Assembly: GCA_947589435.1 (NCBI GenBank)
Contig: CANQBI010000003.1
Coordinates: 1-55,891 of the forward strand
Direction: 5' to 3'
Length of the DNA: 55,891 nt
Source: an uncultured Bacilli bacterium
GTDB lineage: Bacteria > Bacillota_I > Bacilli_A > RF39 > UBA660
The notes below the pieces were generated by a model that saw only the letters and a list, made by a program, of their open reading frames with translations, did not search any database and was not told where the DNA came from. Positions 246 to 55,375 of this stretch are shown here, in pieces (positions within the stretch are counted from its first letter, which is position 1; each line of letters begins with the position of its first letter). Position numbers and translations under genes: made by a program.

Positions 246-1421
246 TTAACTAACTATCCTATCCGATATTATAAATGGATTACTTTCTGTTCCTTCTCCT
301 GATATGCTTATCTCGGATATTAGATAAAAGACTGGACGAACAGCATCCACACTGCCACCGAAAGGTAAGGAAGTAGTTAGACTCCCTTCTGAGCGCACAA
401 AAAATACATCATCATTATCGATTCCCCTCGACATAGTCCATTCATAATCTTTGCCAGAAAAAGTAGATAAGCCATTTCTTATAAATAACCAGTTTGTTAA
501 ATTCTTATATTCATTTGGACCTGCATTTATATAATCGCTTTGATACATTAATCCTATTTTATGATTATTATTAGATAACGTTTGCTTTTCCTCTGAACTA
601 CCATCCCTCGCCGTAGATCCGCCTACATACCATTTTGGATTACTTATAATACTTTTGTCACCAATAGTTACTGATGCACCTGTCAAAAAAGTTGATTCTA
701 AATATTCAAGTACTTTTGATCCCTCCCAACTTGTACAAGTATAACAAGTACTCCAACCTTGATTATCATTACTTGACGTTGCTTTGATTATCTTTAATTG
801 ATCTTTTACGAGTCCTAAATTTGTATTTACATTTTCTGTTGTTATTCCTATTATTCTATACATGTATGTATTTTTATCAGCTAAACATATATCTTTATTT
901 TCAGTACCAAAACATATGAAGTTATTTATTTTATTACTTGTTACATCACTTTGAGTTCCTACATATCTTAAGAGTTCATCACCTTCATATGCTGTTTTTA
1001 AATATTGTTCTGATGTTGTTTGCTTCATTAATTTTAACACTGTACTTTTTCTCGCAAATTTAAGTGTACAATAGATTGTTCTGTCTGTTGAAATTGTTGC
1101 CTTATTTCCCTCTATATTAAATTGTAATATATCTGTTGTTGGTGTTATTTGATTTCCATTTACATCTTCACATTCACTTCCATAATACTCAAATATATCT
1201 TTATCAGGCCATTTTATTCTTGTGGTATCTTCATCCCACCCAAAACTATCATTTTGTACTTTTATAGCGATTTGCTTACTATCTTTTAAATTTTCTACAA
1301 TTTGAATATTTTCTAATACTTTATTATTTGAATTATTTAATTCTTTTACATAATTATATAATTCATATACTACTCCAATTGTAAATATTACTATTAATAT
1401 ATTTAATACTTTTCTATTCAT
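246..1421 (-). CDS. Membrane-anchored surface protein with a C-terminal DUF6273/C-type-lectin-like domain and a DGR-like variable end
   Basis: 391 aa. N-terminal TM helix, Cys-containing module (WP...EC.D..G...IYCTL.FA), then NNFICFG..YRIIG..KIGLMY.SDY..NWL..EWTMS..VRPVFYL..G.GT..NPF. Paralog of 29550-30665. Confidence 0.75.
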   Translation of the reverse strand: MNRKVLNILIVIFTIGVVYELYNYVKELNNSNNKVLENIQIVENLKDSKQIAIKVQNDSFGWDEDTTRIKWPDKDIFEYYGSECEDVNGNQITPTTDILQFNIEGNKATISTDRTIYCTLKFARKSTVLKLMKQTTSEQYLKTAYEGDELLRYVGTQSDVTSNKINNFICFGTENKDICLADKNTYMYRIIGITTENVNTNLGLVKDQLKIIKATSSNDNQGWSTCYTCTSWEGSKVLEYLESTFLTGASVTIGDKSIISNPKWYVGGSTARDGSSEEKQTLSNNNHKIGLMYQSDYINAGPNEYKNLTNWLFIRNGLSTFSGKDYEWTMSRGIDNDDVFFVRSEGSLTTSLPFGGSVDAVRPVFYLISEISISGEGTESNPFIISDRIVS

Positions 1422-1432
1422 TTTTAATTCTC

Positions 1433-2971
1433 CTAACTCACCTTATCAAAGTATGCATAACAAGTATTCTTACCAGTTGTTGTATATGTAAATCCTTTTG
1501 TTTCATCATATATTATATCTGTTGTAACATTATCTAAATTATCACATTCATAACTAGACATTGTATATCCTTTAGGTATTCTTCCATCTGCAATATATGT
1601 TTTATTATTTTTTATTGTAACTATACTTCCTGTTTCTGATTCTATATAAGTTGTTATTCTTATATCTCCATCTTTTATTTCATATGGTGTTAAATTAAAA
1701 CTATAGTATATTCTGCACACCACTTGATAGGGTTTATCTTCCGAAACATTTATTGTTACTCTTCCATCATCATTTATATAATAATCCGGGTAATTAACTG
1801 TACTACTTTCTTTAGGTATACAATTACTTTTACTTTTATCAAGTTTATAATTATTTTTAACATCTAATGGTGGGATATTATATAAAATATATTGACCGAG
1901 ATTAAAATGGTCTTCAATATAATACATTACATTTATGTCTGAAGTTTTACTTATGCTTGATGTGTCTCCAGTTGTAGAACTAGGTCTTTTGTATAATGCT
2001 GTTTTTTCGATTATAAAGGGATTCTCTTCTGTACCACTTCCGTTTATCTTCACATTACTTCTTAAATACATTACAGGTCTTATTAAATATTTATTGGTAA
2101 CAGACGTATAACTTACATTACCAGATGACGATATATACCAAGAATAATTAATATTATATCTTGACATTGTCCATTCATTACCACTTGAATCACTTGGATA
2201 ATTAGTGTCATTATTGCTTATATGTAACCAATTACCAGTTTTACAACTACTTCCAGAATAACAATTGGCATCATTTCCCATTGCTAAATAATAATCACTT
2301 AAATACATTAAACTAACCTTAGAATTAACGACATTTTCTCCCCAATTTTTCTTTTCATTTTCTAACAAAGTTGTTCCAGTATATGATGAAATACTAATTA
2401 AGTCGCCATAATCATATGCATAATCGGCAATTCCAATCAGCCAATTATTATCTTGTAAATAAGAGTAATCGCTACTTTTTAGAAAATAACTTTTTTTTAA
2501 TCCAATATATAGAGAAGAATTATTCCAAGTTACATCAGATGAACGATTCCAAGAATATGATATATCTAATGCCTCTTTTTTAATTATTTTTAATTCTTGG
2601 GTTTTTGTATCTATTCCTATTATACGATACATATATTTATCTTGATTTTCTATACACTCATTCTTATCTTTTGTTCCAAAACAAATATAATTATTTACGC
2701 TACTTCCTTGGTATCTTCTTAACCTATCATTTCTTACTTGCATATTTTCTCGTGTTTCTAAACCACTATTTTCTTGTGATTCCAAATATTCTTCTATGTC
2801 TTGTGTAGAAAAATTTCCTACTTTGGAAGTAAATATAGGTACTGGTTCCATCTCATAATTATAATAAGCATGAGTATTTCTTAAACAAATAAATAAGACC
2901 ATAACAAAAAAACATATTATTAGATATATTACTTTTATATTTAAGAATTTTTTTAATCTTTCCTTTATCAT
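1433..2971 (-). CDS. Secreted surface protein: SipW-like signal (THA-YYNYE), DUF6273-like domain, C-terminal Cys module
   Basis: 512 aa, RBS AAGAGG. N-terminal block shared with 30681-31500 and 53199-55260; C-terminal module shared with 30681-31289 (NC.P..QVVCR.YY..NTCY.YF). Confidence 0.75.
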   Translation of the reverse strand: MIKERLKKFLNIKVIYLIICFFVMVLFICLRNTHAYYNYEMEPVPIFTSKVGNFSTQDIEEYLESQENSGLETRENMQVRNDRLRRYQGSSVNNYICFGTKDKNECIENQDKYMYRIIGIDTKTQELKIIKKEALDISYSWNRSSDVTWNNSSLYIGLKKSYFLKSSDYSYLQDNNWLIGIADYAYDYGDLISISSYTGTTLLENEKKNWGENVVNSKVSLMYLSDYYLAMGNDANCYSGSSCKTGNWLHISNNDTNYPSDSSGNEWTMSRYNINYSWYISSSGNVSYTSVTNKYLIRPVMYLRSNVKINGSGTEENPFIIEKTALYKRPSSTTGDTSSISKTSDINVMYYIEDHFNLGQYILYNIPPLDVKNNYKLDKSKSNCIPKESSTVNYPDYYINDDGRVTINVSEDKPYQVVCRIYYSFNLTPYEIKDGDIRITTYIESETGSIVTIKNNKTYIADGRIPKGYTMSSYECDNLDNVTTDIIYDETKGFTYTTTGKNTCYAYFDKVS

Positions 2972-4274: not shown

Positions 4275-4298
4275 TCTTTCCTCCTATCTTTTTTGTTC

Positions 4299-4329
4299 AA
4301 CTTGAGGTCGAAATTTTCGACATCAAGTT
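4299..4329. repeat. 31-bp palindrome AACTTGAGGTCGAAA-T-TTTCGACATCAAGTT
   Basis: 15-bp arms with 1 mismatch, just upstream of the ORF6N RBS. Confidence 0.88.
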
Positions 4330-4518
4330 TAAAAATTAATAACTTAATAAAATATAAGCATTAATATCTAGAACTTATTTTTAATTGTTACTGATATATC
4401 AAGTATATTACACGAACTAATATTTGTCAATAACTTTTTGTAACATTTTTGTGAATAACAACTTATTTGCCTTTTATGGTCACAAATTGGAACCGCAATT
4501 TATCATATTAACTTTTTT

Positions 4519-4541
4519 TAAGGTCCCAAATTGGGACCTTA
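4519..4541. repeat. Perfect palindrome TAAGGTCCCAA-A-TTGGGACCTTA
   Basis: 11-bp arms; sister of 208-232. Confidence 0.9.
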
Positions 4542-4592
4542 GAAATTATGAAATGTTTTAATTATCTATAAAATTGTATTTATTTAATTTCC

Positions 4593-4623
4593 AACTTGAG
4601 GTTTCAAATTGAAACCTCAAGTT
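4593..4623. repeat. Perfect 31-bp palindrome AACTTGAGGTTTCAA-A-TTGAAACCTCAAGTT
   Basis: 15-bp perfect arms; identical to 4782-4812 except for the central base. Confidence 0.92.
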
Positions 4624-4781
4624 TTGTTTTTTAATTTAAAATTGTTTATTTTAGTCAAAAAATTTCTCAAAATTTCACATTAAATATTTATTAAAATTGC
4701 CCGCAAAGTCCCATTTCACCTTATAAATCATGTTTTATATTTTTTTTATTATCTGTTACAAATTAAAATTTAGAATTCATT

Positions 4782-4812
4782 AACTTGAGGTTTCAATTTG
4801 AAACCTCAAGTT
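4782..4812. repeat. Perfect 31-bp palindrome AACTTGAGGTTTCAA-T-TTGAAACCTCAAGTT
   Basis: 15-bp perfect arms. Confidence 0.92.
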
Positions 4813-4833
4813 TTATTTTTCATCTTAATTTAT

Positions 4834-11139: not shown

Positions 11140-11401
11140 CCTTAGTTTAAATAACTTCTCCGCGTAATTTAAAATTACTCTCCATAATTTTAAATATTAA
11201 CTAAATATTATCAGTATTTAGTGCAGATAGCTTATCTTTAGAGTTTTCTTTCTCTTAAAACAATTGTCTTTACTTAGCGTAGATAAGATTATTATTACAT
11301 AATTTATTTACTAATTAAATATATCTTTCACACATAGCAACATTACTACAAAACATAATAACTTCTAACTATGACTACTAAATATATTATCTTTACTAAG
11401 T
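11109..11401 (-). ncRNA. Candidate stand-alone RNA of about 290 nt, class unknown
   Basis: Bounded by a consensus sigmaA promoter and an intrinsic terminator; the only ORF I noticed is 13 codons with a weak RBS. Confidence 0.45.
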
Positions 11402-11407
11402 AATTTT

Positions 11408-11436
11408 ATTATAGTATTAATTATTTATTTTGTCAA
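11408..11436 (-). promoter_or_regulatory. Consensus sigmaA promoter TTGACA-N17-TATAAT
   Basis: Exact match: -35 at 11436-11431, -10 at 11413-11408. Confidence 0.85.
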
Positions 11437-11461
11437 TATATGCAATGAAAAAAAGAACCAA

Positions 11462-12207: not shown

Positions 12208-12249
12208 AATAGAGACCTCCTCACCTAACCACCATATTATACCAAATTT

Positions 12250-14187
12250 TTACTCTTTTTCAAATAGAAAGTTCATAATACTTTGCGAAATATAGCGAGT
12301 TATATATACTTTACTATAATTATATTCTTTTAAAACATAAATATTGGGGGCTAAAACTACGACACTATACTTGGGATTATCATAAGGAGCAAAACCCACA
12401 AAGGCGATGGAAGTTGTTTTGGTATCCATCACACCATCGTTGTTCGTATCGATAAATGTTTCACTTGTTCCCGTTTTACCGGCCGGATTATATTCACTTT
12501 TAATATAACTTCTGGCTGTCCCACTAGTGGTAGCTAAATGCATGGCCTCTTTTAATCTTTCTAAATAAACATTATCTAGACTAACATTATTTAAAACGGT
12601 ATAATCATTTTGGAAAATAGTAGTATTTTCATTTTTAATTTCTTTCATAAGTTGCGGTTTTCTTCTTACTCCACTACTGGCAATGGTATTAACATATTGA
12701 AATAATTCCATTGGGGTATACGTGTCATATTGGCCAATACTTAAATTAAGAAGCAAATCACTCGAGGTTAAAGCCCCTTTAATACCTGTTTTTTCGTTAG
12801 GTAAATCTATTCCCGTTAGATTTCCTAAACCATATTCTTTATACATATCCCGGAATTTATTAAAATCATTTTCACTTGTATTTAAAGTCATATTATATTT
12901 ATATTCTTGATTAGTAAGACCTATCGCTATTTTAAATTGGTAATAATTACTACTTTTACTTATCGCCGTTAAATCATTTACTTTACCTAAATTTTTATAA
13001 CTACATTTAATCGGTACTTGATAGAGTTTAATACACCCATCTTGCACACTGGTTCCAATATCAATAACGCCATATTTATAACCCGTGCTAATCGTTGCCA
13101 TTTTAACAACACTTCCCACGGTAAAAGAAGAATTAATTAAATTAGTATTCACACTTTTAAAAGTTTCATCTTCTAAAGAGATTAACTTTTGCCCACTTAA
13201 AGCAATAATTTCGCCCGTATTAGGGTCTCCCACAATACTATAACTTTCACTAAAATAATCGGTATTCTTTCTTTTTTTACCCAAAATAATATTTTCTCTT
13301 AAAATACTTTCTAATTTAAGTTCAACATCGATATCAATCGATAAGACTAAATCATTACCATTCTTAGCTTCTTTTATTACTTTTAATGTATTATCGCTAT
13401 TAACTTCGTATAATTCTTTTTCCCCTTTTAAATAATCTTCATATTCTTTTTCTAAATAACTTAAACCGACTATATCATTTAAATTATACCCTTTTTTTAA
13501 ATATTCTTCTTTTTCTTCTTCGGGAATTCTGCCAATGGACCCAAATAAGTCTTTTAGGGTATCTCCATAATTATAAACTCTTTCCCAAGTAAGTTCCGTA
13601 CTTACCCCTTCAATATTTTTATCTACTAAAGTACTATATTCTAAGTCACTAATATTTTTGGAAATTATCTTTTTTGCATAAGAATAACCTTTGTTCATTA
13701 AATCATAAATAGTCGCGGTCTTCTTCTCTATTTCCTCTAAATTATTAATATCTTCCTCTTTAACTCTTTCTAATTTTAAATTTTCAATATCTTTACTGGT
13801 AATTTTGCGCATCTTTAACTTTTCGTACTCTTCTTCAGTTATTAAATCATCCCCATTATTATGCGTAAGTAACCAATATTTCTTTAAGACATTTTCATTA
13901 ATGGATATATTGATAATTTCTGCGAGTTCCCTTGCTATTTCTAATTCTTTTTGGACAGTTACACCCTTTAATTTGGTATAAAATAAAGTTTTAACTCCCA
14001 TGTTATCCACTAAAACTTTACCATTCCTATCTAAAATTCTTCCTCTTGGAGCACTTTCCCCATAAACATAATTTATCGTTTTATTTTCCAATTTTTTTAA
14101 ACTTTCTTCATGATTATTTAAATTTAAATAAACCATTCTTCCTAAAAGGATTAAAAAGATAATTGTTATTCCTAAATATTTTTTCAT
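12250..14187 (-). CDS. Class B penicillin-binding protein (transpeptidase)
   Basis: APRGRILDRNG dimerisation domain; GSVVK (SxxK), SSN and GKTGT motifs. Probable start is MKKYLG at 14187; the track start is 14217. Confidence 0.92.
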   Translation of the reverse strand: MKKYLGITIIFLILLGRMVYLNLNNHEESLKKLENKTINYVYGESAPRGRILDRNGKVLVDNMGVKTLFYTKLKGVTVQKELEIARELAEIINISINENVLKKYWLLTHNNGDDLITEEEYEKLKMRKITSKDIENLKLERVKEEDINNLEEIEKKTATIYDLMNKGYSYAKKIISKNISDLEYSTLVDKNIEGVSTELTWERVYNYGDTLKDLFGSIGRIPEEEKEEYLKKGYNLNDIVGLSYLEKEYEDYLKGEKELYEVNSDNTLKVIKEAKNGNDLVLSIDIDVELKLESILRENIILGKKRKNTDYFSESYSIVGDPNTGEIIALSGQKLISLEDETFKSVNTNLINSSFTVGSVVKMATISTGYKYGVIDIGTSVQDGCIKLYQVPIKCSYKNLGKVNDLTAISKSSNYYQFKIAIGLTNQEYKYNMTLNTSENDFNKFRDMYKEYGLGNLTGIDLPNEKTGIKGALTSSDLLLNLSIGQYDTYTPMELFQYVNTIASSGVRRKPQLMKEIKNENTTIFQNDYTVLNNVSLDNVYLERLKEAMHLATTSGTARSYIKSEYNPAGKTGTSETFIDTNNDGVMDTKTTSIAFVGFAPYDNPKYSVVVLAPNIYVLKEYNYSKVYITRYISQSIMNFLFEKE

Positions 14188-29482: not shown

Positions 29483-29507
29483 GTTACTAGCATTTAGTAA
29501 CTTATTT
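29477..29507. terminator. Bidirectional terminator
   Basis: AAATAAGTTACTA-GCATT-TAGTAACTTATTT between convergent operons. Confidence 0.8.
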
Positions 29508-29549
29508 TAATTCTTTAACAAATTTCATTCTCTATAATTAACAATGATA

Positions 29550-30665
29550 TTATGCATTATTCTTAGTTGTGATAATGTATGGATGGTCTTTTGTTCCTTC
29601 TCCTGTTAAGTTTACCCCGGATTGTAGATAGAAGACTGGGCGAATCCATTCTCCGTAGTACTCCCACATTGTAAAACGTCCTCCATCATCAATCAACCAA
29701 CTATATTGACTTTCAGTCACAGACATAGTGAGTTCGTAATAATGAAAATCATCATATTTTTGATATAACCAATTACTAGTATCTTGACTCCCAGAATTTT
29801 TATAATCTGTATAATACATTAAGCCTATTTTAAAATCAGAGGAAAAATTTGTTTTTAATTCTGATGATACATCACTATCATGTGGTGTAACGTACCATTT
29901 ATGATTACTTATAATTGATTCCCAATAATTACCATTATTTTGATTAAGAATAGAATTTATAAATGTTGTATTTAGTTCTGTTTTGCACGGTGAAGTTTCA
30001 AATTGTTTAGACATATAACAATTATATGAAGATATTATTTCAGTTTTAATAATTTTTATTTGATCTTTTTTTAATCCAACTAAATCATCATTTGCACTTG
30101 TTATTCCTATTATCCTATACATATAGGTATTTGGCGTTCCTGTGCATGTGCTTTCTACTGTTGTTCCAAAACATATATAGTTATTTAATACTTGTGTATT
30201 TGTTCCTTTAAATCTATACATTCCATCTACGGCACTTGTACTGTTAAAGGTACCTCCACCTTTCTTTGTTAAATGGTCTAATGCTGGTTCTCCTTTAGCA
30301 AAGTACAGAGTACAATATATACTATTTTTTGTATCTATTGTGGCATGATAAGTTGATAAATCAAAATGCAGTATATTTGTATAATCTATTTCTTTTCCAT
30401 CACTATCTGTACATTCTGCTCCAACAAAACCATGAGTTGTTGGACTTGGCCATGTATCTCTATTATCAGATTCATGCCATTCTTCTCCTTCATTATCTTG
30501 TACCCATATGGCTATTGATTTATCATTACTTAATGTATTATTAGTTTGTATTTTTTCTATCTTATTTGGTTTGATATTTAAAGTTCTTATGATGTTATAA
30601 CTTTCTCCTAATATTAAAACTCCTACTATAATTATGATTATTGTTAATATTTTATCTTTCTTCAT
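29550..30665 (-). CDS. Membrane-anchored surface protein with a C-terminal DUF6273/CLec-like domain and a DGR-like variable end
   Basis: 371 aa; same architecture as 246-1421. Confidence 0.75.
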   Translation of the reverse strand: MKKDKILTIIIIIVGVLILGESYNIIRTLNIKPNKIEKIQTNNTLSNDKSIAIWVQDNEGEEWHESDNRDTWPSPTTHGFVGAECTDSDGKEIDYTNILHFDLSTYHATIDTKNSIYCTLYFAKGEPALDHLTKKGGGTFNSTSAVDGMYRFKGTNTQVLNNYICFGTTVESTCTGTPNTYMYRIIGITSANDDLVGLKKDQIKIIKTEIISSYNCYMSKQFETSPCKTELNTTFINSILNQNNGNYWESIISNHKWYVTPHDSDVSSELKTNFSSDFKIGLMYYTDYKNSGSQDTSNWLYQKYDDFHYYELTMSVTESQYSWLIDDGGRFTMWEYYGEWIRPVFYLQSGVNLTGEGTKDHPYIITTKNNA

Positions 30666-30680
30666 TTTATTTTCTCCCTT

Positions 30681-31500
30681 CTATTTACTAAAGTATCCAT
30701 AACAAGTATTTGGTCCAGTTGTATCTATATGAAAGCCATTAGTATCATGAGTAAATGTTGTACTTGCTTTTTTACTTTTACACTCATACGTTATCATAGA
30801 ATAACCATCAGGAACTTGATTATATAATTTATATGTTTTATCATTATATTTTCTATCTCCTGTACTATCTTCTATATAAGCATAAATAATAACATCGGAT
30901 AATTTATCTCTGTCATAATAAAGTCGACATACTACTTGTGTTGGTTTAGTTTCTTCTGTATATTCTATATGGACAGTTCCATCTTCTTTTATAGTGTAAT
31001 TTTCATAAGTTGCATCTCCACCTTCTGCTGGATAACAATTTGATTTATCCCCATTTATTTGATATCCACTGGCGGGTACATATTTACTCTCTTTATATTT
31101 ATCAGCATTATCAGGCATTTGGGTATAAAAGATTATATTTACATCGGTATTCTTATCTATTGGACCTTGTTTAACACTTTCTCCTTCTCCAGCAAAGTTT
31201 CCAACTTTACTTGTAAATATAGGTACTGGTTCCATTTCATAATTATAATAAGCATGAGTTTTATTAATTGCTACATTTATTAATAACAATACAAAAAATA
31301 CTAATACGAATATTCCTAATATTAGTTCTTTATGTTTTAATTTTTCTTTTATATTATTAAGTTTATCTTTTAAATTATTAAATGGTATGAATACTAAAGA
31401 TATTAGGGTATTACAATAACCCCCCCCCGATTTGGGAAATTAGAACTACTAATATAGTTAATCCTACATATAGTACTAAATTTTTATTCTCTTTCTTCAT
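30681..31500 (-). CDS. Secreted surface protein frameshifted at a G9 tract (272 aa if G8)
   Basis: ATG at 31500 with RBS GAGG reads MKKENKNLVLYVGLTILVVLISQIGGGLL* (stop 31413-31411). Removing one G joins it without stops to the track ORF 30681-31289. Confidence 0.75.
31420..31428 (-). repeat. G9 homopolymer (slippage site)
   Basis: Nine C on the plus strand in AT-rich sequence; same context as 55156-55164. Confidence 0.9.
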
Positions 31501-31668: not shown

Positions 31669-32544
31669 CTAGCCTTTTATTTCTTTAACAAAGACTGGTT
31701 GTCTTAAATTATTACTTTTAGTTCTTTCTATATATTTAACTTCACATTTTAATTTTAGATTAATAATATTTTCATCATTTTCTTTTTTAATTATTTTTTC
31801 TTTTTTTATTTTTTTATATAAAGGACTCTTCTTGGCTATATTTACTTTACCAACTAAAGGATGTTTAGTGGTATTATCTCCTAGTAATAAAGTTATGACA
31901 TAATTTTCTTCTTTTTCTATATAACCAATAATATAAAAAGTTTCGTACTTATAATTTTTAATTTTTAGCCAATAATCACATCTCGTATTTATTAAATAAG
32001 GACTTGTTTTTAGTTTGGCAATAATACCTTCTAAATTTTCTTTTTTTACCATTTTATATAAATCCTTACCATGTTCATCAATATATTTAGTTTTGATAAA
32101 GACATCACTATCTTTATATTTTTCTAAATATTTTTTTCTTTCCTCTAAAGGAAGTTTAGTTAAATCTTTATCTTCATATAAAATATCAAAGGCCATAAAA
32201 GTAATGGGATTGTTTAGTGAAGCCTCTTTTATTTTAGTTTTATTTTTTAAATGAGTTCTTTCTTGTAATTTGGAAAATGATGGTTTACCATTTTGAAAAC
32301 TTACAATCTCGCCATCAAAGATAACTTTATTTTTGACTATCTTTTTTAAACTTTCTAATTCGGGATACAAATAAGTTATATCTATTAAATTACGACTTTT
32401 GATAATTACTTCTTTAGGACTTACAAAAATTAGAGAACGATAACCATCAAATTTTATTTCAAAAAGATAATCTTTGGAATTAAAAGGTTTGGGTATTTCT
32501 CTTAATAACATAGGCCCCCAATTTTTATTTTGCCATATATTCAT
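31669..32544 (-). CDS. ATP-dependent DNA ligase (LigD ligase domain only)
   Basis: FEIKFDGYR, IFDGEI, AFDILY, EGIIAK..S.Y....R...W.KIK, LRQPVF; no polymerase or PE domain. Confidence 0.9.
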   Translation of the reverse strand: MNIWQNKNWGPMLLREIPKPFNSKDYLFEIKFDGYRSLIFVSPKEVIIKSRNLIDITYLYPELESLKKIVKNKVIFDGEIVSFQNGKPSFSKLQERTHLKNKTKIKEASLNNPITFMAFDILYEDKDLTKLPLEERKKYLEKYKDSDVFIKTKYIDEHGKDLYKMVKKENLEGIIAKLKTSPYLINTRCDYWLKIKNYKYETFYIIGYIEKEENYVITLLLGDNTTKHPLVGKVNIAKKSPLYKKIKKEKIIKKENDENIINLKLKCEVKYIERTKSNNLRQPVFVKEIKG

Positions 32545-33290
32545 TTTTTCTTTTTCAAACTCTTTTCTAAGGCTTCCATTAAATCATTAATTTGAATTTT
32601 ATCTTTTTTAGTCGTACCTTTAATACTTTTACCATTTAGTTTAGCCTCAATGGCTTTTCTAATATTATTTTGATATTCATCTTCATACTTTTGGGGTTCA
32701 AATTTACCACTTAAATCGTTGATTAACTTAATGGCTAAATCCAGTTCTTTTTCTTTTACTTCACCCGTTTTATTTTCATCGGGAGTCATTACTTCTTCTT
32801 CAAAAAACAAGGTAGTCATCACTATTCCAAAGGGTGCAAATCTTAAAATACAATAGTAGAATTTACTGCCAATAACTGTTTTGGCTAAAGCTACTTTTTT
32901 CACCTTTTTTAAAGCCTCACAAAACAAATCATAAGCTTTACTTGTCCCATTATATTTTAAAATATAACTTTTTTCAAAATAGATAGGATCAATATCTTTC
33001 ACATCAATAAAAGAAACAATTTCAATTTCTTTTTCTTGTTCGGGTTTTAATTTATCAAGTTCACTTTTATCAAAAGTTAAATATTTATCATTTTCATATT
33101 CATAACCTTTAATAATATCTTTATCTTTTACTTCTTCCTTACAATGCGGACAATATTTAACATAGTTAATTCTCGTTAAACATTTTTTATGAAGTTGGTT
33201 AAAAGAAGTATCATTATCTCTAATTAAAGGATTCATAATAACCGGAATATTTACTAAACCAAAAGAAATATTGCTATGAACATTAGGCAT
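32541..33290 (-). CDS. ku: Ku protein (NHEJ)
   Basis: ISFGLVNIPV, F.QLH..C..RI.Y...CP.C...V...DIIKGYEY, IDPIYFEKSY, F.P..Y.DEY. Probable start 33290; the track start is 33353. Confidence 0.95.
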   Translation of the reverse strand: MPNVHSNISFGLVNIPVIMNPLIRDNDTSFNQLHKKCLTRINYVKYCPHCKEEVKDKDIIKGYEYENDKYLTFDKSELDKLKPEQEKEIEIVSFIDVKDIDPIYFEKSYILKYNGTSKAYDLFCEALKKVKKVALAKTVIGSKFYYCILRFAPFGIVMTTLFFEEEVMTPDENKTGEVKEKELDLAIKLINDLSGKFEPQKYEDEYQNNIRKAIEAKLNGKSIKGTTKKDKIQINDLMEALEKSLKKKK

Positions 33291-33375
33291 AAACATCACC
33301 ATTTTTAGGATAATCTTTTTAAAAATTTTTATACAAAATTTAAAATTAAACATAAATTAAAAAAGGAGGAATGTT

Positions 33376-42762: not shown

Positions 42763-44247
42763 CTATTTAACTTTTCTTAAAACTTCTTCTAACTCTGCTG
42801 CTTCAATATCTTCCCCATTTTTACTTTCGGTATAAGACATTAATAAATCAACACCCGTTATTGGTTTAACTTCCTTAGAAGGAATCTTTTCTTTAATTTC
42901 AATTTTTCTTCCAATGCATACACTTAATAATCGATTAACCTCTTTAGTTAAGTAATAGATGTACATTTCTTTATCCCGATTATCTTTTTTTAAGGATTTA
43001 ATTCTTCTAAGGGCTTCTTTAAACATTTCGATAACTTCTTTTAAATTATTATCCTCGTTTAAGACCTCTCTTACTAATAAGACATCTTCTTCCGTATATT
43101 CACTACTTAAAATTCTCCCCATTGGTACAGATATTTTAAGTTGGGCTAAAAGAGAACTACTACTTATAAGTTTAACAATATCAACATCTATACCATAACA
43201 ATTATTAGCAATCGCCGCCATTTCAATATTAATTCCGTACTCAATAGCATTATTATTTAATAAAATACTACTAACAACTTTGGCTTTTTCCTTACTTTCA
43301 CTTTCGGTTAATATTTGCATGGCCGTTATATTATCTCCTTTAAAAATAAGCATTTGATAAAACAAAACTCTCTTCACCATATCAATGTCTAAATTCTTAG
43401 GGGCATCAAGTAAAATTTGCGATGCTAATACATCGATTCCCTTATTTTCAAATTGAGCTGATGTTAAAGCCCAATAAATAATTTGAGCAATTTCTTTAGT
43501 ATTACTTCTTAAAATAAGTTCTACTTTATTATCATCTATTTTTTCCTTACCTTTAATTAGATAAATTAAATAATCGTATAAGACATTTACTTTAAAATCT
43601 TCTTTAACGGAAGCAAGTATTTTAGTAGCTTTCATAACTTCATCTTTATTTTCATCGTTTAGATAATCAAATAAGAGTTTAATGCCAAATGGAGCTTTGC
43701 TATTTTGAGATGACATAATAATTTTCACATATTCTAAAACATTAGGTAATGGAAAATCTAAGAAAGATAGATAAACCTCTCTTACTTCCGATGTATTTTT
43801 ACATTTTAAAATTATTTCCGCATAAAGACTTTTATCTTTTAACTTACTCATGGCATAAATATTTTCAATATAATTTATATATTCAGCACTTGGACATCTC
43901 GTTATATAATAAGCCCCTTCTAAAGAAGTCTTTTCTTTAATAAATCTATCATCAGTTAAATGTTTACATAGATAAAAGCCATATTTGGGAGAGTCTTTAA
44001 TGATATCAATGCTTTCCATCATTTCATTTAAAATATCTAAAGTTAAATCTTTACCACTCATTTTTAAAACATATTCCGTAGCATAGGCTAAAGCATTTTT
44101 ATTTTTAACTTCCATTAAATAATTTAAAACTCTTTCATCTACTTTAAGTAATCTTTCAATATCTTTATCCGAAAAATAGATATTTGATTCACTTTCATTT
44201 ATCTTCTTAATTCTTTCTAAAAATTTCAAAAATTTATCTTTTTGCAT
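42763..44247 (-). CDS. Hypothetical helical-repeat protein (divergent paralog 3)
   Basis: 494 aa; recurring ..I(L/I)..(C/S/A).......I...L helices. Confidence 0.7.
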   Translation of the reverse strand: MQKDKFLKFLERIKKINESESNIYFSDKDIERLLKVDERVLNYLMEVKNKNALAYATEYVLKMSGKDLTLDILNEMMESIDIIKDSPKYGFYLCKHLTDDRFIKEKTSLEGAYYITRCPSAEYINYIENIYAMSKLKDKSLYAEIILKCKNTSEVREVYLSFLDFPLPNVLEYVKIIMSSQNSKAPFGIKLLFDYLNDENKDEVMKATKILASVKEDFKVNVLYDYLIYLIKGKEKIDDNKVELILRSNTKEIAQIIYWALTSAQFENKGIDVLASQILLDAPKNLDIDMVKRVLFYQMLIFKGDNITAMQILTESESKEKAKVVSSILLNNNAIEYGINIEMAAIANNCYGIDVDIVKLISSSSLLAQLKISVPMGRILSSEYTEEDVLLVREVLNEDNNLKEVIEMFKEALRRIKSLKKDNRDKEMYIYYLTKEVNRLLSVCIGRKIEIKEKIPSKEVKPITGVDLLMSYTESKNGEDIEAAELEEVLRKVK

Positions 44248-45742
44248 TCTTATCTCTCTTTTCTAATATTTTTCTTAAATTTTTATTAGCTATACTTAAA
44301 TCAGGCTCTTTTTCTTCTTCAAAAATAATTGTTGTATTAATAATACCTTTTAAAATATTATTAATAATTTTTTCAGTTTTCTTTAAATGTTCTGGTAAAG
44401 TTAATTTATATAAAGAAGCTATACCCTCAATAAATTCTTTTTTATCTTCTTCATTTTGATAAGCATTCCAAATCAGAAATTCATCAAATTCTTCTTCCTC
44501 TAAAGCAATTATTCTTGCTAAAGGAAGAGCCACTCCTATATTATTTAATTTAGGATTCATTGCTAAATTAGCAATTAAATTAATTTCGACATCTGTATAT
44601 ACTCTATTTATTAAAGCCATAAAGGCTAAAGAAGTTTCATTTATTCTATCAAAAATCGCTAAATTATTTAAAGTATTAGCAATTTTTGTGGCTTTCTTTT
44701 CAGTTTCTGATTCATTAACAATCATGCTAGAGCCAATCCGTAAATCGGATTTAAAGCCCTTAAAACTTTCTTGAATTAACCTAGGTTGATATTCTTTTCT
44801 GGAATCACTAAATACTCCGGCCATAACTTCGGATTCATTATTTTTAATATAAGCCTCATTGTTTAAGACCATCGTTATATATTTACCATTAAATTTATGT
44901 CTAGCACTCATAATTAAATTTATATTATCTAAAGAAATAGGTAATTTTTGTTTCAAATTATGTTTAATATAAGCAAATAAATTATTTAAAATATCATCAT
45001 CTTTAGTCATTAAGAAATACTTACAGGAATCAATTGCATAAGGAATTACTTCAACATCCAAATCATTAAATAAATAGTATATACAACTAAGTTGTTCATA
45101 AGTTTTACATTTAGTAAGCATTTCAATAACTACTTTAGTATATCCTGTTTTTAGTAGATTCTCATCTTCCGCAATTTCTGTAATGGCATCTAAAATATCT
45201 TCATCTACTATTCTTTTCATAACCTTAGAAGCTTCTAAAAATATTGGCATAAATTCTTGTTCTTCTAAAGTTTCAATACTCGAAAACATATCATAAATTT
45301 TTAAAGCTTGGATTTTATATTTACAACCTAATATAATATCACTTGCTAAATCTTTATAAGGAATAAAGTTATTTTCATATATTTTATAAATATAATCGAT
45401 TTGAAATTCTTTAGTAGCTTTTAAAGTTTTATTTAGACACTCAATTTTTTCTGAGACTTCCATCTTTCTACTAAATATAATGTCATGATAAGAAAAATTA
45501 TCCAAATCTTTTCTATTTTCTAATATTTCAATTAGCATTAATATTAATTCATCGTTCACATTAATTTTAACATCAATAAAATCTCTTAAATCACCGATTA
45601 ATGTTACTAATACTTTATCATCTTTAACTCTAGATAATCTTTCTAATACTTCTTCACTGTAATTATCTAAAATTTTTTTATACTTAACTCTATTTCCCAA
45701 TTCTTTTATTCTATCTAATAAACTATTTTTTAACTCTTCCAT
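44234..45742 (-). CDS. Hypothetical helical-repeat protein (paralog 2)
   Basis: 502 aa; shares blocks such as LPISLDN.NLI..ARHKFNGKY and GVALPLARIIALEEEEFD with 45753-47204. Confidence 0.75.
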   Translation of the reverse strand: MEELKNSLLDRIKELGNRVKYKKILDNYSEEVLERLSRVKDDKVLVTLIGDLRDFIDVKINVNDELILMLIEILENRKDLDNFSYHDIIFSRKMEVSEKIECLNKTLKATKEFQIDYIYKIYENNFIPYKDLASDIILGCKYKIQALKIYDMFSSIETLEEQEFMPIFLEASKVMKRIVDEDILDAITEIAEDENLLKTGYTKVVIEMLTKCKTYEQLSCIYYLFNDLDVEVIPYAIDSCKYFLMTKDDDILNNLFAYIKHNLKQKLPISLDNINLIMSARHKFNGKYITMVLNNEAYIKNNESEVMAGVFSDSRKEYQPRLIQESFKGFKSDLRIGSSMIVNESETEKKATKIANTLNNLAIFDRINETSLAFMALINRVYTDVEINLIANLAMNPKLNNIGVALPLARIIALEEEEFDEFLIWNAYQNEEDKKEFIEGIASLYKLTLPEHLKKTEKIINNILKGIINTTIIFEEEKEPDLSIANKNLRKILEKRDKNAKR

Positions 45743-45752
45743 AAAACCTCCC

Positions 45753-47204
45753 TTATCTTCTTTTTAATACTTTTTCTTCTTTTCCTTTAAAATCAAATGG
45801 TATATTAATTTCTTTTAAAATATTATTAATAATTTTTTGAGCTTTTATTTTATTGTCCGATATTGTACAACTATTTAAACTTACAAGACCAAACATTAAA
45901 GCTTTTGCCGTTTCTTCATTTTGATAAGCATTCCAAATTATCAAACGGTCAAATTCTTCTTCCTCTAAAGCAATTATTCTTGCTAAAGGTAGAGCTACTC
46001 CTATTTTATTTAGAATTGTATTTTTAGCTAAATCCGCAATTAAATTAATTTCAACATCAGTATATACTCTATTTATTAATGCGGCAAAAACTAAGGAATT
46101 ATCATTTATTTCCTCATATTTAACCAAACTATTTAAAATTGCTGTAATAGTTAAAGCCTTTTTTCTAGTTTCCGCTTCATTAACAAGCATACTAGCTCCT
46201 ACAAATAATTCGGGAGTAAGTCCATGTAAATTATTTTTAATTAAAAAAGCTTGATATTCTTTTCTAGAATCACTTAAAATTCCTGCTACAGTGGTCTCTT
46301 CTTTGGCCTCAACCAAAGCATCATTAGTTAAAGCTTCAGTAGCATACTTTCCATTAAATTTATGCCTAGCATTTATAATTAAATTTACATTATCTAAAGA
46401 AATAGGTAATTTATTGCTTAAAGCATAACAAATATAATCATATAAATTTTTTAAACTAGTTTTATCTTTAGTTAATAAGAAATATTTACAAGCTTCCATA
46501 GCGTATGGAATATGTTCCATATCTACTTTTTTATTCGTATCATCAAAAATACTAGCAATATAAATTACTTGGTCATAATTTTTACATTTCGTAATTAAAT
46601 TGGCTACTACCGTAACACAGCCACTTTCGAGTAAATTTTTATTATCAAGTATTTCTTCCATTCTAAATAAGATTTCTTTATCTACTACTTTAGTCATTAA
46701 TTTAGCTACTTCAATAAAGGTAGGATTATATTCATTTCCCTCTTTACATCTATGAATAACAGCATAAATTTCATCAGCTTGGATTTTACAAGTAGAAGTA
46801 AGAATAAGATTAATAGCTAAATCCCTATAAAGATTATCTTCGGCATAAAGATAATAGATATTTTCTTCTTGATATCTTGTTTTCGCTTTAAGCATACCAT
46901 TTAGACATTCTAATTTATCTTTAAAATCCAGTTCCCCATAAATTATATTACCATATAAGGAATCTATTTTTCCTTTTTGACAAATTATATCTATAATTAT
47001 AAGTAATAATTCCTCGTTTATATCTACTCCTAAATCATTAATATCTAGAAAATTATTTAATATTAATCTTAAATTATTATCATTTTTAACTAATAAAAGT
47101 TTTTCTAAAACATCTTTACCACAAATATCTAAAATCTTAATATATTTTTCTCCATTTTCTATTTCTTTTATTCTTTCTAATAAATTATTCTTTAATTCTT
47201 CCAT
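45753..47204 (-). CDS. Hypothetical helical-repeat protein (paralog 1)
   Basis: 483 aa; MEELKN.LL.RIKE start shared with paralog 2. Confidence 0.75.
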   Translation of the reverse strand: MEELKNNLLERIKEIENGEKYIKILDICGKDVLEKLLLVKNDNNLRLILNNFLDINDLGVDINEELLLIIIDIICQKGKIDSLYGNIIYGELDFKDKLECLNGMLKAKTRYQEENIYYLYAEDNLYRDLAINLILTSTCKIQADEIYAVIHRCKEGNEYNPTFIEVAKLMTKVVDKEILFRMEEILDNKNLLESGCVTVVANLITKCKNYDQVIYIASIFDDTNKKVDMEHIPYAMEACKYFLLTKDKTSLKNLYDYICYALSNKLPISLDNVNLIINARHKFNGKYATEALTNDALVEAKEETTVAGILSDSRKEYQAFLIKNNLHGLTPELFVGASMLVNEAETRKKALTITAILNSLVKYEEINDNSLVFAALINRVYTDVEINLIADLAKNTILNKIGVALPLARIIALEEEEFDRLIIWNAYQNEETAKALMFGLVSLNSCTISDNKIKAQKIINNILKEINIPFDFKGKEEKVLKRR

Positions 47205-53198: not shown

Positions 53199-55260
53199 TC
53201 AAGCACTTATTATAAATGGATTACTTTCGGTGCCACTTCCAGTTAATGTTATATCCGGTATTAGATAAAAGACTGGGCGAACCGCATACCCAGAGGCCAC
53301 ACTAACCCAGTCCAAGGTGCCGCTCGTACCCACACGCCACGCATAGTATTCGCCATAATAGTCGCCATACCTAGTCATTGTCCATTCGTAGGTACTATAA
53401 TATGTTGTACTACTACTTGTTCCATGTGTTATATGTAACCAACTATCATTATTATATGGCGACGATGTATTATATGTGTTTTTAGAATTATAAAAATCAC
53501 TCGCATACATTAATCCTATTTTATGATTTTCTGATAGACTTATTTTGTCTGTTTCAGTTTTTGATGACCATGGATATGAATAATTATATCCTATATACCA
53601 TTTTGGATTACTTATTAAATTGCTCCAACTTCCTCCCATATCATTAATTGTTTTTAAAAAACCATTTGTTCCGTTATTTAAATATATTCTTACTGTATTA
53701 CTTCCATTATCCCAATCGATATCCGAACTATAATCTACTGCCCATGCTATGGCTTTTACACTACTATTTTCTTTTACTGGCGTTGCCTTTATTACTTTTA
53801 ACATCCCTGCTTTTAATCCTAGAGTACTTTCTTCTGTTCCGTCGGTTACTCCGATTATTCTATACATATATTTATCCGGATTACTGGTACATTCTTCTTT
53901 ATTATCTGTTCCAAAACAGATATAGTTATTTATTCTTCCTGCATCCACATCTTCATATGTTCCTATATATCTTAATAATACATCATCATTTTCTGCTTTT
54001 TTTAAATAATCTTCACTTGTTGTGGATTGTAACTTATCTATTGCTGGTTTAGGTTCCTCTGGAACTATAATAAATGGTTTATCTTCACTTCCTTTACCTG
54101 ATATCTCAATATTTGATGTTAGATAGAAGACTGGGCGAAACGCAAACGAACTAGTCGGCCAAACTTTTTGCAAGTTGCCAAACGGAGCTATATACCATAC
54201 ATTTAAATAACCACCAAAATCACTGCCATTTCGAGTCATCGTCCATTCATATGAATAAACCATATCACCACATTTTTGGGAACCACTACTTAACCCATGA
54301 CATATATTTAACCAACTATTTGTATTTTGTTCATATGTCCATGAATTGTAATAATCACTCGCATACATTAATCCTATTGGATATCCTTTTGGATTGTAAA
54401 AATCATTTGTTATTATCTTTTTCTCATTTGTTATCCCAGTATTATTAAAATAGTCAAGAGTAGCATCACCCTTGTACCATTGTTGTATTGTTATTTTACT
54501 CTTCCATATTGAATCTATTGTACTATAGAAATCATTATTTAAATAGTATCTTAATATTGCTCCAGATGATGAAATTGTGTTTCCATAATCCCATGGTTCA
54601 TTGGACGTATAATTGCCTGCCCATTGCAGTGTATTTACATCACCATTGTCTTCCTTTAATGATGTTGCTTTGATTACTTTTAATTGTCCTTTTTGTAAAC
54701 CTATATTTTCATCTGCTTTGTCTGTTATTCCTATGATTCTATACATATATTTATCTGGATTACTTGTACATTCTTCTTCATTATCTGTTCCAAAACAGAT
54801 ATAGTTATTTAATTTTCCATCATTTACATCTTCATATGTTCCTACATATCTTAATAATACATCATCGTTTTCTGCTTTTTTTAAATATTCTTCATCTGTT
54901 GTTGATTGTAATGCCTCTAATGGAGGTTTAGACTCCTGTTTAACAAAGTTTCCTACTTTAGAAGTAAATATAGGTACTGGTTCCATTTCATAATTATAGA
55001 ATGCATGAGTTGCACTTATTATTCTAAATAAAGATATAACAAAAAGACCGAGAATGATATAACTTATTTCTCGTTTATATTTTTCTTTTACATTTTTTAA
55101 TTTATCTTTAAAGTTAGATGGTATGAATACTACAGATATTAGGGTGTTACAATAACCCCCCCCCGATGCTACTTATTAGAACTACTAAACTAAATATAAT
55201 TAGTTTTAATATTTTCTTTCTATCAATATGTTTATTATTTAAAATATTATCCTCTACCAT
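53199..55260 (-). CDS. Secreted surface protein with two tandem DUF6273/CLec-like domains, frameshifted at G9 (686 aa if G8)
   Basis: ATG at 55260 with RBS GAGGAG reads ...LVVLISSIGGGLL* (stop 55149-55147). Removing one G gives an open frame into the track ORF 53199-54986. Confidence 0.78.
53262..53390 (-). repeat. DGR-like variable repeat (C-terminal)
   Basis: 53271-53339 is 44/69 G+C; the variable codons end in C or T around fixed GCG TGG, GTG, ACG, GGC, TTG and GCG GTT CGC CCA. Confidence 0.65.
54120..54250 (-). repeat. DGR-like variable repeat (internal domain)
   Basis: 54129-54197 is 33/69 G+C and collinear, without gaps, with 53271-53339. Confidence 0.55.
55156..55164 (-). repeat. G9 homopolymer (slippage site)
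   Basis: Nine C on the plus strand; same context as 31420-31428. Confidence 0.9.
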
Positions 55261-55375
55261 TTTACTTCTCCTCATATGTTTTAAATACCGAATATTAATT
55301 CTATTAATAATATGGCATATAATTTTATTTTATATACCATATTATTAATGTCGCTACTTGGTATGTTACAATAAA

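Follow-up and report, generated by a model that had tools for sequence, protein, structure and literature searches.

Does a single bacterial protein carry two binding sites that are diversified independently of each other, or has one of its two repeats ceased to be rewritten? The question is raised by gene T, which lies close to one end of a 55,891-nucleotide (nt) stretch of DNA from an uncultured Bacilli bacterium (GenBank assembly GCA_947589435.1, contig CANQBI010000003.1; the whole stretch is called the window below). T encodes two tandem domains, and each ends in a segment that resembles the variable repeat (VR) of a diversity-generating retroelement (DGR). A first-pass annotation of the window proposed that both segments are diversified. 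Our analysis favours another reading, which we put at a probability of about 0.7: T would hold one live VR at its terminal end and one fossil VR at its internal position, the latter descending from a DGR VR that has long not been rewritten. The features concerned are as follows.

Gene T, 53199..54986, minus strand: 595 amino acids (aa) as called, with two tandem DUF6273-like domains; delimited from the list of open reading frames (ORFs), the translation, the domain–domain alignment and homologs.
Domain 1 of T, ~54051-54926, minus strand.
Domain 2 of T, 53202-54050, minus strand.
Internal VR-like segment, 54123..54233, minus strand: 72-nt core at 54129-54200; 3' end like an initiation of mutagenic homing (IMH) element, GCGTTTCGCCCAGTCTTCTAT, at 54123-54143; read here as an eroded fossil VR.
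Terminal VR, 53265..53372, minus strand: 23 aa before the stop codon; 72-nt core at 53271-53342; IMH-like end GCGGTTCGCCCAGTCTTTTAT at 53265-53285; scaffold intact.

Codon positions and composition of the two domain ends

Both domains of T end in EWTMTR, a variable stretch of about 30 residues, and RPVFYL. The two segments compared in the first-pass annotation (54129-54197 and 53271-53339, 69 nt each, minus strand) lie in frame with T and align without gaps over 23 codons, and a recount of the identities at codon positions 1, 2 and 3 gave exactly the values reported there (11/23, 14/23 and 17/23). By itself this asymmetry falls short of significance (chi-square p=0.19; Fisher test of position 3 versus position 1, p=0.13). 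Position 3 is the best conserved position in the W-to-RPV segment only, and nowhere else in the domain–domain alignment. For the N-terminal ~100 aa, described in that annotation as nearly identical between the domains, the DNA shows a 241-nt direct repeat with 85% identity (53825-54065 and 54704-54944); here the identities at positions 1, 2 and 3 are 0.79, 0.91 and 0.76.

Beyond the first ~100 codons the DNA identity of the two domains is ~60%, compared with 85% before that point, and domain 1 of the closest homolog of T (P0002) begins with a different module. This pattern suggests that T underwent gene conversion recently or is a mosaic in origin.

The two domain ends also stand out in their composition. 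The window has a GC content of 27.7%, and the median GC content at third codon positions (GC3) of its genes is 0.18. GC3 was scanned in 24-codon windows across all 45 ORFs (15,395 windows; mean of 4.2 GC-ending codons; 99th percentile of 9). The top three non-overlapping outliers were the terminal segment of T (16/24), the C-terminus of a paralog encoded at 29550..30665 (12/24) and the internal segment of T (12/24), which begins exactly at the W codon (54197). The rare codons GCG, CCG, TCG, CGC, GGC and TTG occur in both segments of T, which also have the run GCG-NTT-CGC-CCA-GTC-TTY-TAT-CTA in common. Because synonymous choices of this kind are not explainable by selection on amino acids, a non-native source of the sequence is needed.

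A template repeat in a relative and the state of each segment

A VR pattern was derived from the bases shared between T and P0002 and used to scan the genome collection. It returned 10 sites, all of them in two metagenome-assembled genomes (MAGs) of uncultured Bacilli from rabbit gut, in frame in genes homologous to T and 23-28 aa upstream of the stop codon. The template repeat (TR) escaped this pattern because it has a C where a T base was required. Scanning for the scaffold with A at the variable sites revealed the TR in one of the fetched loci (L003).

TR, L003 3492-3597 (= L013 ~11354-11459): noncoding, A-rich, ~160 nt 3' of a target gene in a related rabbit-gut Bacilli MAG.

This TR reads GCG TGG AAT GTG AAT CCG GAC GGC AAC TTG AAC AAC AAC AAT GTG ACC AAT ACG AAT GCG GTT CGC CCA GCC. 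It has an A at 21 of the 26 scanned positions that were left as N in the VR scaffold pattern, and it ends in CCCAGCC where every VR ends in CCCAGTC, a difference of the IMH/IMH* type. The TR, which looks like an orphan, is followed on its 20-kb contig by a PDDEXK_2 transposase-like gene that is cut off by the contig end 1 kb away. It fits no fewer than five VR-bearing genes, which lie on separate contigs of this MAG. Just 3' of the stop codon of two VR-bearing genes that belong to different assemblies (L003 3331-3375 and L031 ~2550-2590) lies a GC-rich palindromic element, ..CCCAAGGCGGCAATATGGCG.., which is absent after T.

The scaffold was defined from 10 intact terminal VRs, each 23-28 aa from the stop codon, in four assemblies, namely the window, the metagenome contig that carries P0002 (L002) and the two rabbit-gut Bacilli MAGs. 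Fixed positions make up 45 of the 72 in the core, and the remaining 27 fall almost all at TR adenines. Relatives of the window's host thus possess a fixed scaffold, a TR and A-specific variation. The first-pass annotation had attributed the codon-position pattern to adenine mutagenesis of AAY codons, and this agrees with the TR of the relative, which reads AAT or AAC where the VRs vary. Judged from these alignments, the TR/VR signature appears unambiguous, though the assignment to a DGR rests on it rather than on a complete cassette. The following ranges serve as references for the two segments of T.

Intact VRs: 41-47 of 49 non-A positions of the TR kept; 10-17 of 22 A positions changed; 41-45 of 45-47 fixed positions matched (leave-one-out).
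Nine scaffold-free homologous segments: 19-27 of 49 non-A positions kept; 11-19 of 22 A positions changed; 22.4±3.0 of 45 fixed positions matched.

The terminal core keeps 44 of the 49 non-A positions of this TR, which is heterologous and comes from another species, and is changed at 17 of the 22 adenines (p=4e-8). Its leave-one-out scaffold match is 44/47; the scaffold is intact and the differences from the heterologous TR are confined to adenines. The terminal segment of P0002 is rich in AAC codons and differs from that of T almost exclusively at the first two codon positions: identities at positions 1, 2 and 3 are 15, 14 and 22 of 24, with differences at 2/47 fixed and 19/25 variable positions. 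Such identity at position 3 reads as the signature of a DGR. The terminal VR appears to be in a freshly written state and has probably been rewritten recently, presumably in trans, the machinery being absent nearby.

The internal core is in a different condition. Compared with the same TR it keeps 35/49 non-A positions (14 mismatches) and is changed at 13/22 adenines (p=0.015), so that its differences are not confined to the adenines of this heterologous template. At 33/45 fixed positions it matches the scaffold, which places it 3.6 standard deviations (SD) above the scaffold-free baseline. The other 12 positions carry scaffold changes, eight of them from G/C to A/T; counted against the TR, 11 of the 14 non-A mismatches go in this direction. 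GTA, ATA, CCG, ACT and TTT are the deviant scaffold codons. Descent from a TR-type scaffold is nevertheless apparent in the fixed third positions and GC-rich rare codons, and the GC-rich IMH-like 3' element is common to segment and TR. When both segments are aligned to the template, as the first-pass annotation had suggested, the terminal one fits it, whereas the internal one is derived from a TR but eroded. Substituted at 12 positions that never vary among intact VRs, the internal segment does not bear out the idea of two independently diversified domains. Several of these changes adjoin the 3' anchor (GTT>TTT, ACC>ACT, GTG>CCG), where any homing would have reset them. The internal segment is clearly not in a rewritten state.

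Comparison with the closest homolog leads in the same direction. P0002 (locus L002, 27.6% GC) has two domains, both with GC3-rich ends. Its internal core shares 12, 13 and 13 of 24 codon positions 1, 2 and 3 with that of T and hence shows no conservation of position 3. The two internal segments differ at 17/47 scaffold and 17/25 variable positions, and their nucleotide identity of 0.53 is tied for the lowest of any segment of T, while the 3' flank of the internal segment is 85% identical in DNA to P0002. Their scaffold changes lie mostly at different positions, with only positions 3, 42 and 47 in common, which speaks against a second TR that is conserved. As far as a comparison with one ortholog can show, the third positions of the internal segment are normal and variation is confined to the terminal repeat, the very outcome that the first-pass annotation had named as counting against its proposal.

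What, then, does the asymmetry between the two segments of T signify? Mismatches between them fall at 16/25 variable and 13/47 fixed positions (p=0.003). One shared scaffold combined with rewriting of the terminal copy alone leads to an excess of differences at positions 1 and 2. A static relic compared with an actively rewritten VR yields the same excess, and the asymmetry cannot tell one live VR from two. If T holds one live and one fossil VR, the excess at position 3 is what remains of the shared scaffold, with diversification of the terminal copy added. The pair in T thus bears witness to adenine mutagenesis at some time in its past, but not to two live targets. In general, a codon-position asymmetry within a pair of repeats establishes that diversification has affected one member or more, not that it has affected both.

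The history of the gene may be pictured as follows. The last ~100 nt of each domain would be a DGR VR in this gene family. The TR of the DGR would be transcribed, and an error-prone reverse transcriptase (RT) would misread adenines while copying it. The resulting cDNA would replace the VR, anchored at the GC-rich 3' element GCGGTTCGCCCAG (followed by T-C in VRs and by C-C in the TR). Every round of rewriting would reset the non-A positions to the TR and randomise the first two positions of the AAY codons. The internal VR would have arisen through duplication of a domain or recombination between paralogs and would then have gone unrewritten for a long time. It would have drifted at ~27% of its scaffold positions, mostly to A/T, the direction to be expected at a GC content of 27.7%.

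Machinery, alleles and rival explanations

Searches of the window for a TR by short-word blastn, by an A-tolerant scan with four VR-like queries and by a scaffold scan returned paralogs and poly-A tracts only. The internal segment was considered as the template of the terminal VR and was ruled out by the A-tolerant scan. Neither RT nor Avd was found in the 55.9-kb window, in which the 45 ORFs were compared with the RVT_1 and Avd Pfam models and all six frames were scanned for the YxDD motif. No RT was present in the DNA around eight relatives (P0002, P0055, P0093, P0112, P0102, P0084, P0025 and P0012), which includes the 20-kb contig with the TR, or among the called genes of the P0049 contig. 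A tblastn search against phage genomes gave no match; one relative, 28% identical, was found on a viral contig, and the six of its ORFs that were scanned contained no RT. The 3' end of the TR had no match in viral contigs or in JGI metagenomes, and two looser TR patterns and the VR scaffold pattern had none in viral contigs. A relaxed VR/TR pattern retrieved two more distant VRs and one chance match from JGI metagenomes. A rough check with RNA parameters found no conserved GC-rich hairpin downstream of the VRs, and Rfam and tRNA scans gave nothing relevant. The searched DNA thus contains no TR in the window and no RT, or the Avd that usually accompanies it, near the TR or the VRs. We infer that the genome has an RT and a TR outside the window, from where they act in trans, and that the internal VR is now inactive.

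Allelic variation was sought among the homologs of T, which number 1,023. The closest is 47% identical, and close alleles are absent: over 5,195 nt a metagenome contig (L001) shows 100% identity, and the cluster of T has one member. Within the family, diversification is visible between the near-identical alleles P0048 and P0156, which differ at 24 columns in the VR window (terminal VR) and at 8 elsewhere. Ten clusters at 90% identity were examined, seven of which consist of two-domain relatives. These seven had no variable column in either VR window, though their alleles differ elsewhere; such distant two-domain lineages are not being diversified, a result without bearing on T. In a two-domain homolog from another MAG (P0025, locus L025, VRs at 11378-11449 and 12230-12301) the roles are reversed: the internal VR, with 40/45 fixed positions and 7/22 A changed, comes near to a TR copy without mutations, and the terminal one is eroded (32/45).

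Several points weigh against our reading of T. The gene is on record as a single allele, and present-day variability of either segment has not been observed. No TR, RT or Avd accompanies it in the window, no RT was seen on any related contig examined, and the TR that we used is from another species than the window's host. In addition, the internal IMH-like 3' end GCGTTTCGCCCAGTCTTCTAT is almost intact, with one mismatch to the VR consensus GCGGTTCGCCCAGTCTTCTAT (the TR reads ...CCCAGCC...), and could still be a competent target. Better-preserved internal VRs exist in the relatives L002 (37/45) and L025 (40/45, with 7/22 A changed), so an internal position alone does not prevent homing.

The last two observations would also be expected if both segments were live VRs and the protein had two independently variable binding sites; the internal VR would then be rewritten seldom by the TR of the terminal one, or else would have a diverged TR of its own. 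We regard this as unlikely. The enrichment at adenines of the mismatches between internal segment and TR (p=0.015) and the fact that T and P0002 diverge more at the variable than at the fixed positions of their internal segments (p=0.01) are consistent with it, as is the unequal activity of several VRs described in one gene (PMC10907252). Selection on exposed residues, whether relaxed or positive, can however account for the excess at variable sites as well. Homing would have reset the 12 scaffold changes, among them the eight to A/T and those beside the 3' anchor, the mostly unshared changes in P0002 give no indication of a conserved second template, and position 3 is not conserved against that homolog. 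A further elaboration, in which two live hypervariable lectin-like sites sit on one membrane-anchored protein, the internal one rarely rewritten or served by a second TR, with a G9 tract upstream of T possibly acting as a switch, seems to us rather unlikely.

A recombinant origin has more to do with the past of the internal segment than with its present. The segment may never have been diversified in place and may have arrived already eroded, by recombination or gene conversion with a decayed paralog, which would make T a mosaic. The step in identity between the two domains, the different N-terminal module in domain 1 of P0002 and the presence in the window of at least three further paralogs with eroded ends all agree with such a history. 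Yet where the internal segment gives way to the next domain (FYLTSNIEISGKG...PEEPKPAIDKL), T and P0002 have 85% DNA identity, so the two-domain junction predates the split of the two lineages. We therefore take a mosaic to be improbable, and it would alter the history of the segment rather than its present state, overlapping with the reading that we prefer. Lastly, no retroelement may be involved at all, the pattern then resulting from ordinary paralog divergence, chance and local composition. In favour of this stand the 23-codon count, which is not significant alone (p=0.19), and the lack of an RT in any DNA searched. It is nonetheless very improbable: rare GC-ending codons cluster exactly here in a window with a median gene GC3 of 0.18, a relative has a noncoding A-rich TR, ten VRs with 45 invariant nucleotides differ at the adenines of this TR, and the internal segment stands 3.6 SD above scaffold-free segments. 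One live terminal VR and one fossil internal VR therefore remains the reading that we prefer.

The protein family, its paralogs and known systems

A precomputed PF19789 (DUF6273) annotation is present on some homologs of T, and 16 of 59 aligned homologs match DUF6273 (best E=6.9e-7); neither T nor its domain 2 matched PF19789 at E<=0.01. Domain 2 was modelled with AlphaFold2 at a mean predicted local distance difference test (pLDDT) score of 92.6. A Foldseek comparison of the model with the PDB gave an immunoglobulin A (IgA) peptidase of Thomasclavelia ramosa as its best match (9qa6, E=1e-4, template modelling (TM) score of 0.48); further matches, to C-lectin and Lcl, were weak (E>0.4), and Mtd and TvpA were not returned. 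As part of the reading preferred here, T is most likely a cell-surface protein with tandem DUF6273-like, C-type-lectin-like domains. As called, T has no start codon upstream of its membrane anchor. A small ORF lies upstream.

Small upstream ORF, 55147..55275, minus strand: 42 aa, hydrophobic, ends ...IGGGLL*; contains a tract of nine Gs (G9) at 55156-55164.

Directly behind this tract begins the open frame that leads into T and encodes a second hydrophobic stretch; one G fewer would fuse the small ORF with it in frame. The arrangement recurs at 31420-31428 of the window and in loci of two other assemblies (L014 2943-2951 and L010 3077-3085), always with nine Gs. It is possible that the G9 tract serves as an on/off switch for T, or as a site of programmed frameshifting or transcriptional slippage.

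The window otherwise has the content of an ordinary chromosome, with gyrA/gyrB, recA, ffh/ftsY, the genes for RNase J and Y, tRNA synthetases, and Ku with a ligase. It also contains spore genes, which identify the host as a spore-forming Firmicute. Three paralogs of T end in segments that correspond to its VRs.

Paralog p1, C-terminal segment, 330..401, minus strand: gene at 246..1421; CGT CCA GTC and the 3' flank kept, scaffold largely lost.
Paralog p2, segment, 2072..2143, minus strand: gene at 1433..2971; native AT-rich codons, AGA CCT GTA for RPV; control without scaffold.
Paralog p3, segment, 29634..29705, minus strand: gene at 29550..30665; scaffold eroded, 22/45 fixed positions; best-window GC3 of 12/24.

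The p1 segment belongs to direct-repeat family D6 and has 20/45 fixed positions in an ungapped comparison, a figure that indels may lower. In the p2 segment the GC content is 0.22, GC3 is 4/24 and 22/49 non-A positions match. The 3' tail of p3 is near-identical to that of the TR-adjacent target in the related MAG (L003/L013) and the small upstream gene is conserved, so that p3 looks like the syntenic counterpart of that target. No TR follows p3, from which 67 nt (29483-29549) lead to a convergent gene, and the TR scans of the window were negative.

Together these ends form an erosion series within one window, from the intact terminal VR of T through its half-eroded internal VR and the largely eroded ends of p1 and p3 to the native codons of p2. 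When a VR is no longer rewritten, its scaffold of rare GC-rich codons would erode toward the AT-rich composition of the genome while the reading frame survives. Scaffold erosion could thus serve as a clock, or as an indicator of activity, for DGR targets that is read from sequence only.

Other features were noted in passing. Three tandem head-to-tail paralogs of ~480-500 aa without a Pfam match occupy 42763-47204 (repeats D3, D7 and D8, 71-77% identity). Three copies of a perfect palindrome of ~30 nt (AACTTGAGGTTTCAA.TTGAAACCTCAAGTT) lie at 4289-4813, in an 850-nt intergenic region 3' of an ORF6N-domain gene. Ku and an ATP-dependent DNA ligase, the bacterial non-homologous end joining pair, are encoded at 31669-33353, just upstream of the p3 locus, and a PGK RNA motif (RF03040) is found at 11201-11294. 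In a related locus (L020 1-9985), a small gene and a VR-bearing gene stand at the edge of a block that resembles a conjugative element, with a TraG/VirD4-type coupling protein and a lysozyme/M23 peptidase.

Genes with several VRs of unequal activity and targets that lie far from their RT or TR are already known (PMC10907252, PMC6642488). What is new here is the host group, a multigene family on the chromosome in which a genome has several remote targets, and a graded erosion series in one window. DUF6273 is a published C-lectin-like DGR target with the VR at the C-terminus of the domain, in gut phages ('tentaclins') and in the targets of Faecalibacterium prophages (PMC10743442, PMC11792537). 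T resembles these proteins in its domain family, to which the 16/59 homologs matching PF19789 belong, in its C-terminal VR and in the AAY-type TR/VR signature. They are phage proteins, however, whereas the family of T is chromosomal, multigene and membrane-anchored in uncultured Bacilli; moreover, the TR of the relative has no adjacent RT, and the domains of T fall below the Pfam threshold. DUF6273-type DGR targets would thereby extend from gut phages to a large chromosomal family of surface proteins in spore-forming gut Bacilli.

More than one VR within an ORF is documented for 31 DGRs (PMC6642488). The closest parallel is DGR 4 of Thiohalocapsa PB-PSB1, in which the three VRs of one target gene are unequally active; the same work describes DGR loci that act in trans or are incomplete (PMC10907252). 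Like T, it combines more than one VR in a gene with unequal states of the VRs and targets far from RT and TR. All VRs of the Thiohalocapsa gene were shown to vary in metagenomes, whereas T is known from one allele and its internal VR looks eroded; target domain and bacterial lineage also differ. The prototypes of the CLec fold, Mtd of Bordetella phage BPP-1 and TvpA of Treponema denticola, agree with T in having the VR at the C-terminal end of a lectin-like domain. They also agree with its family in the AAY codons at the variable sites of the TR and in a GC-rich 3' element with a TR-specific difference (IMH versus IMH*). T departs from them in that Foldseek did not return either, in the lack of Avd and RT nearby and, as far as the rough check goes, in the lack of a conserved GC-rich hairpin downstream.

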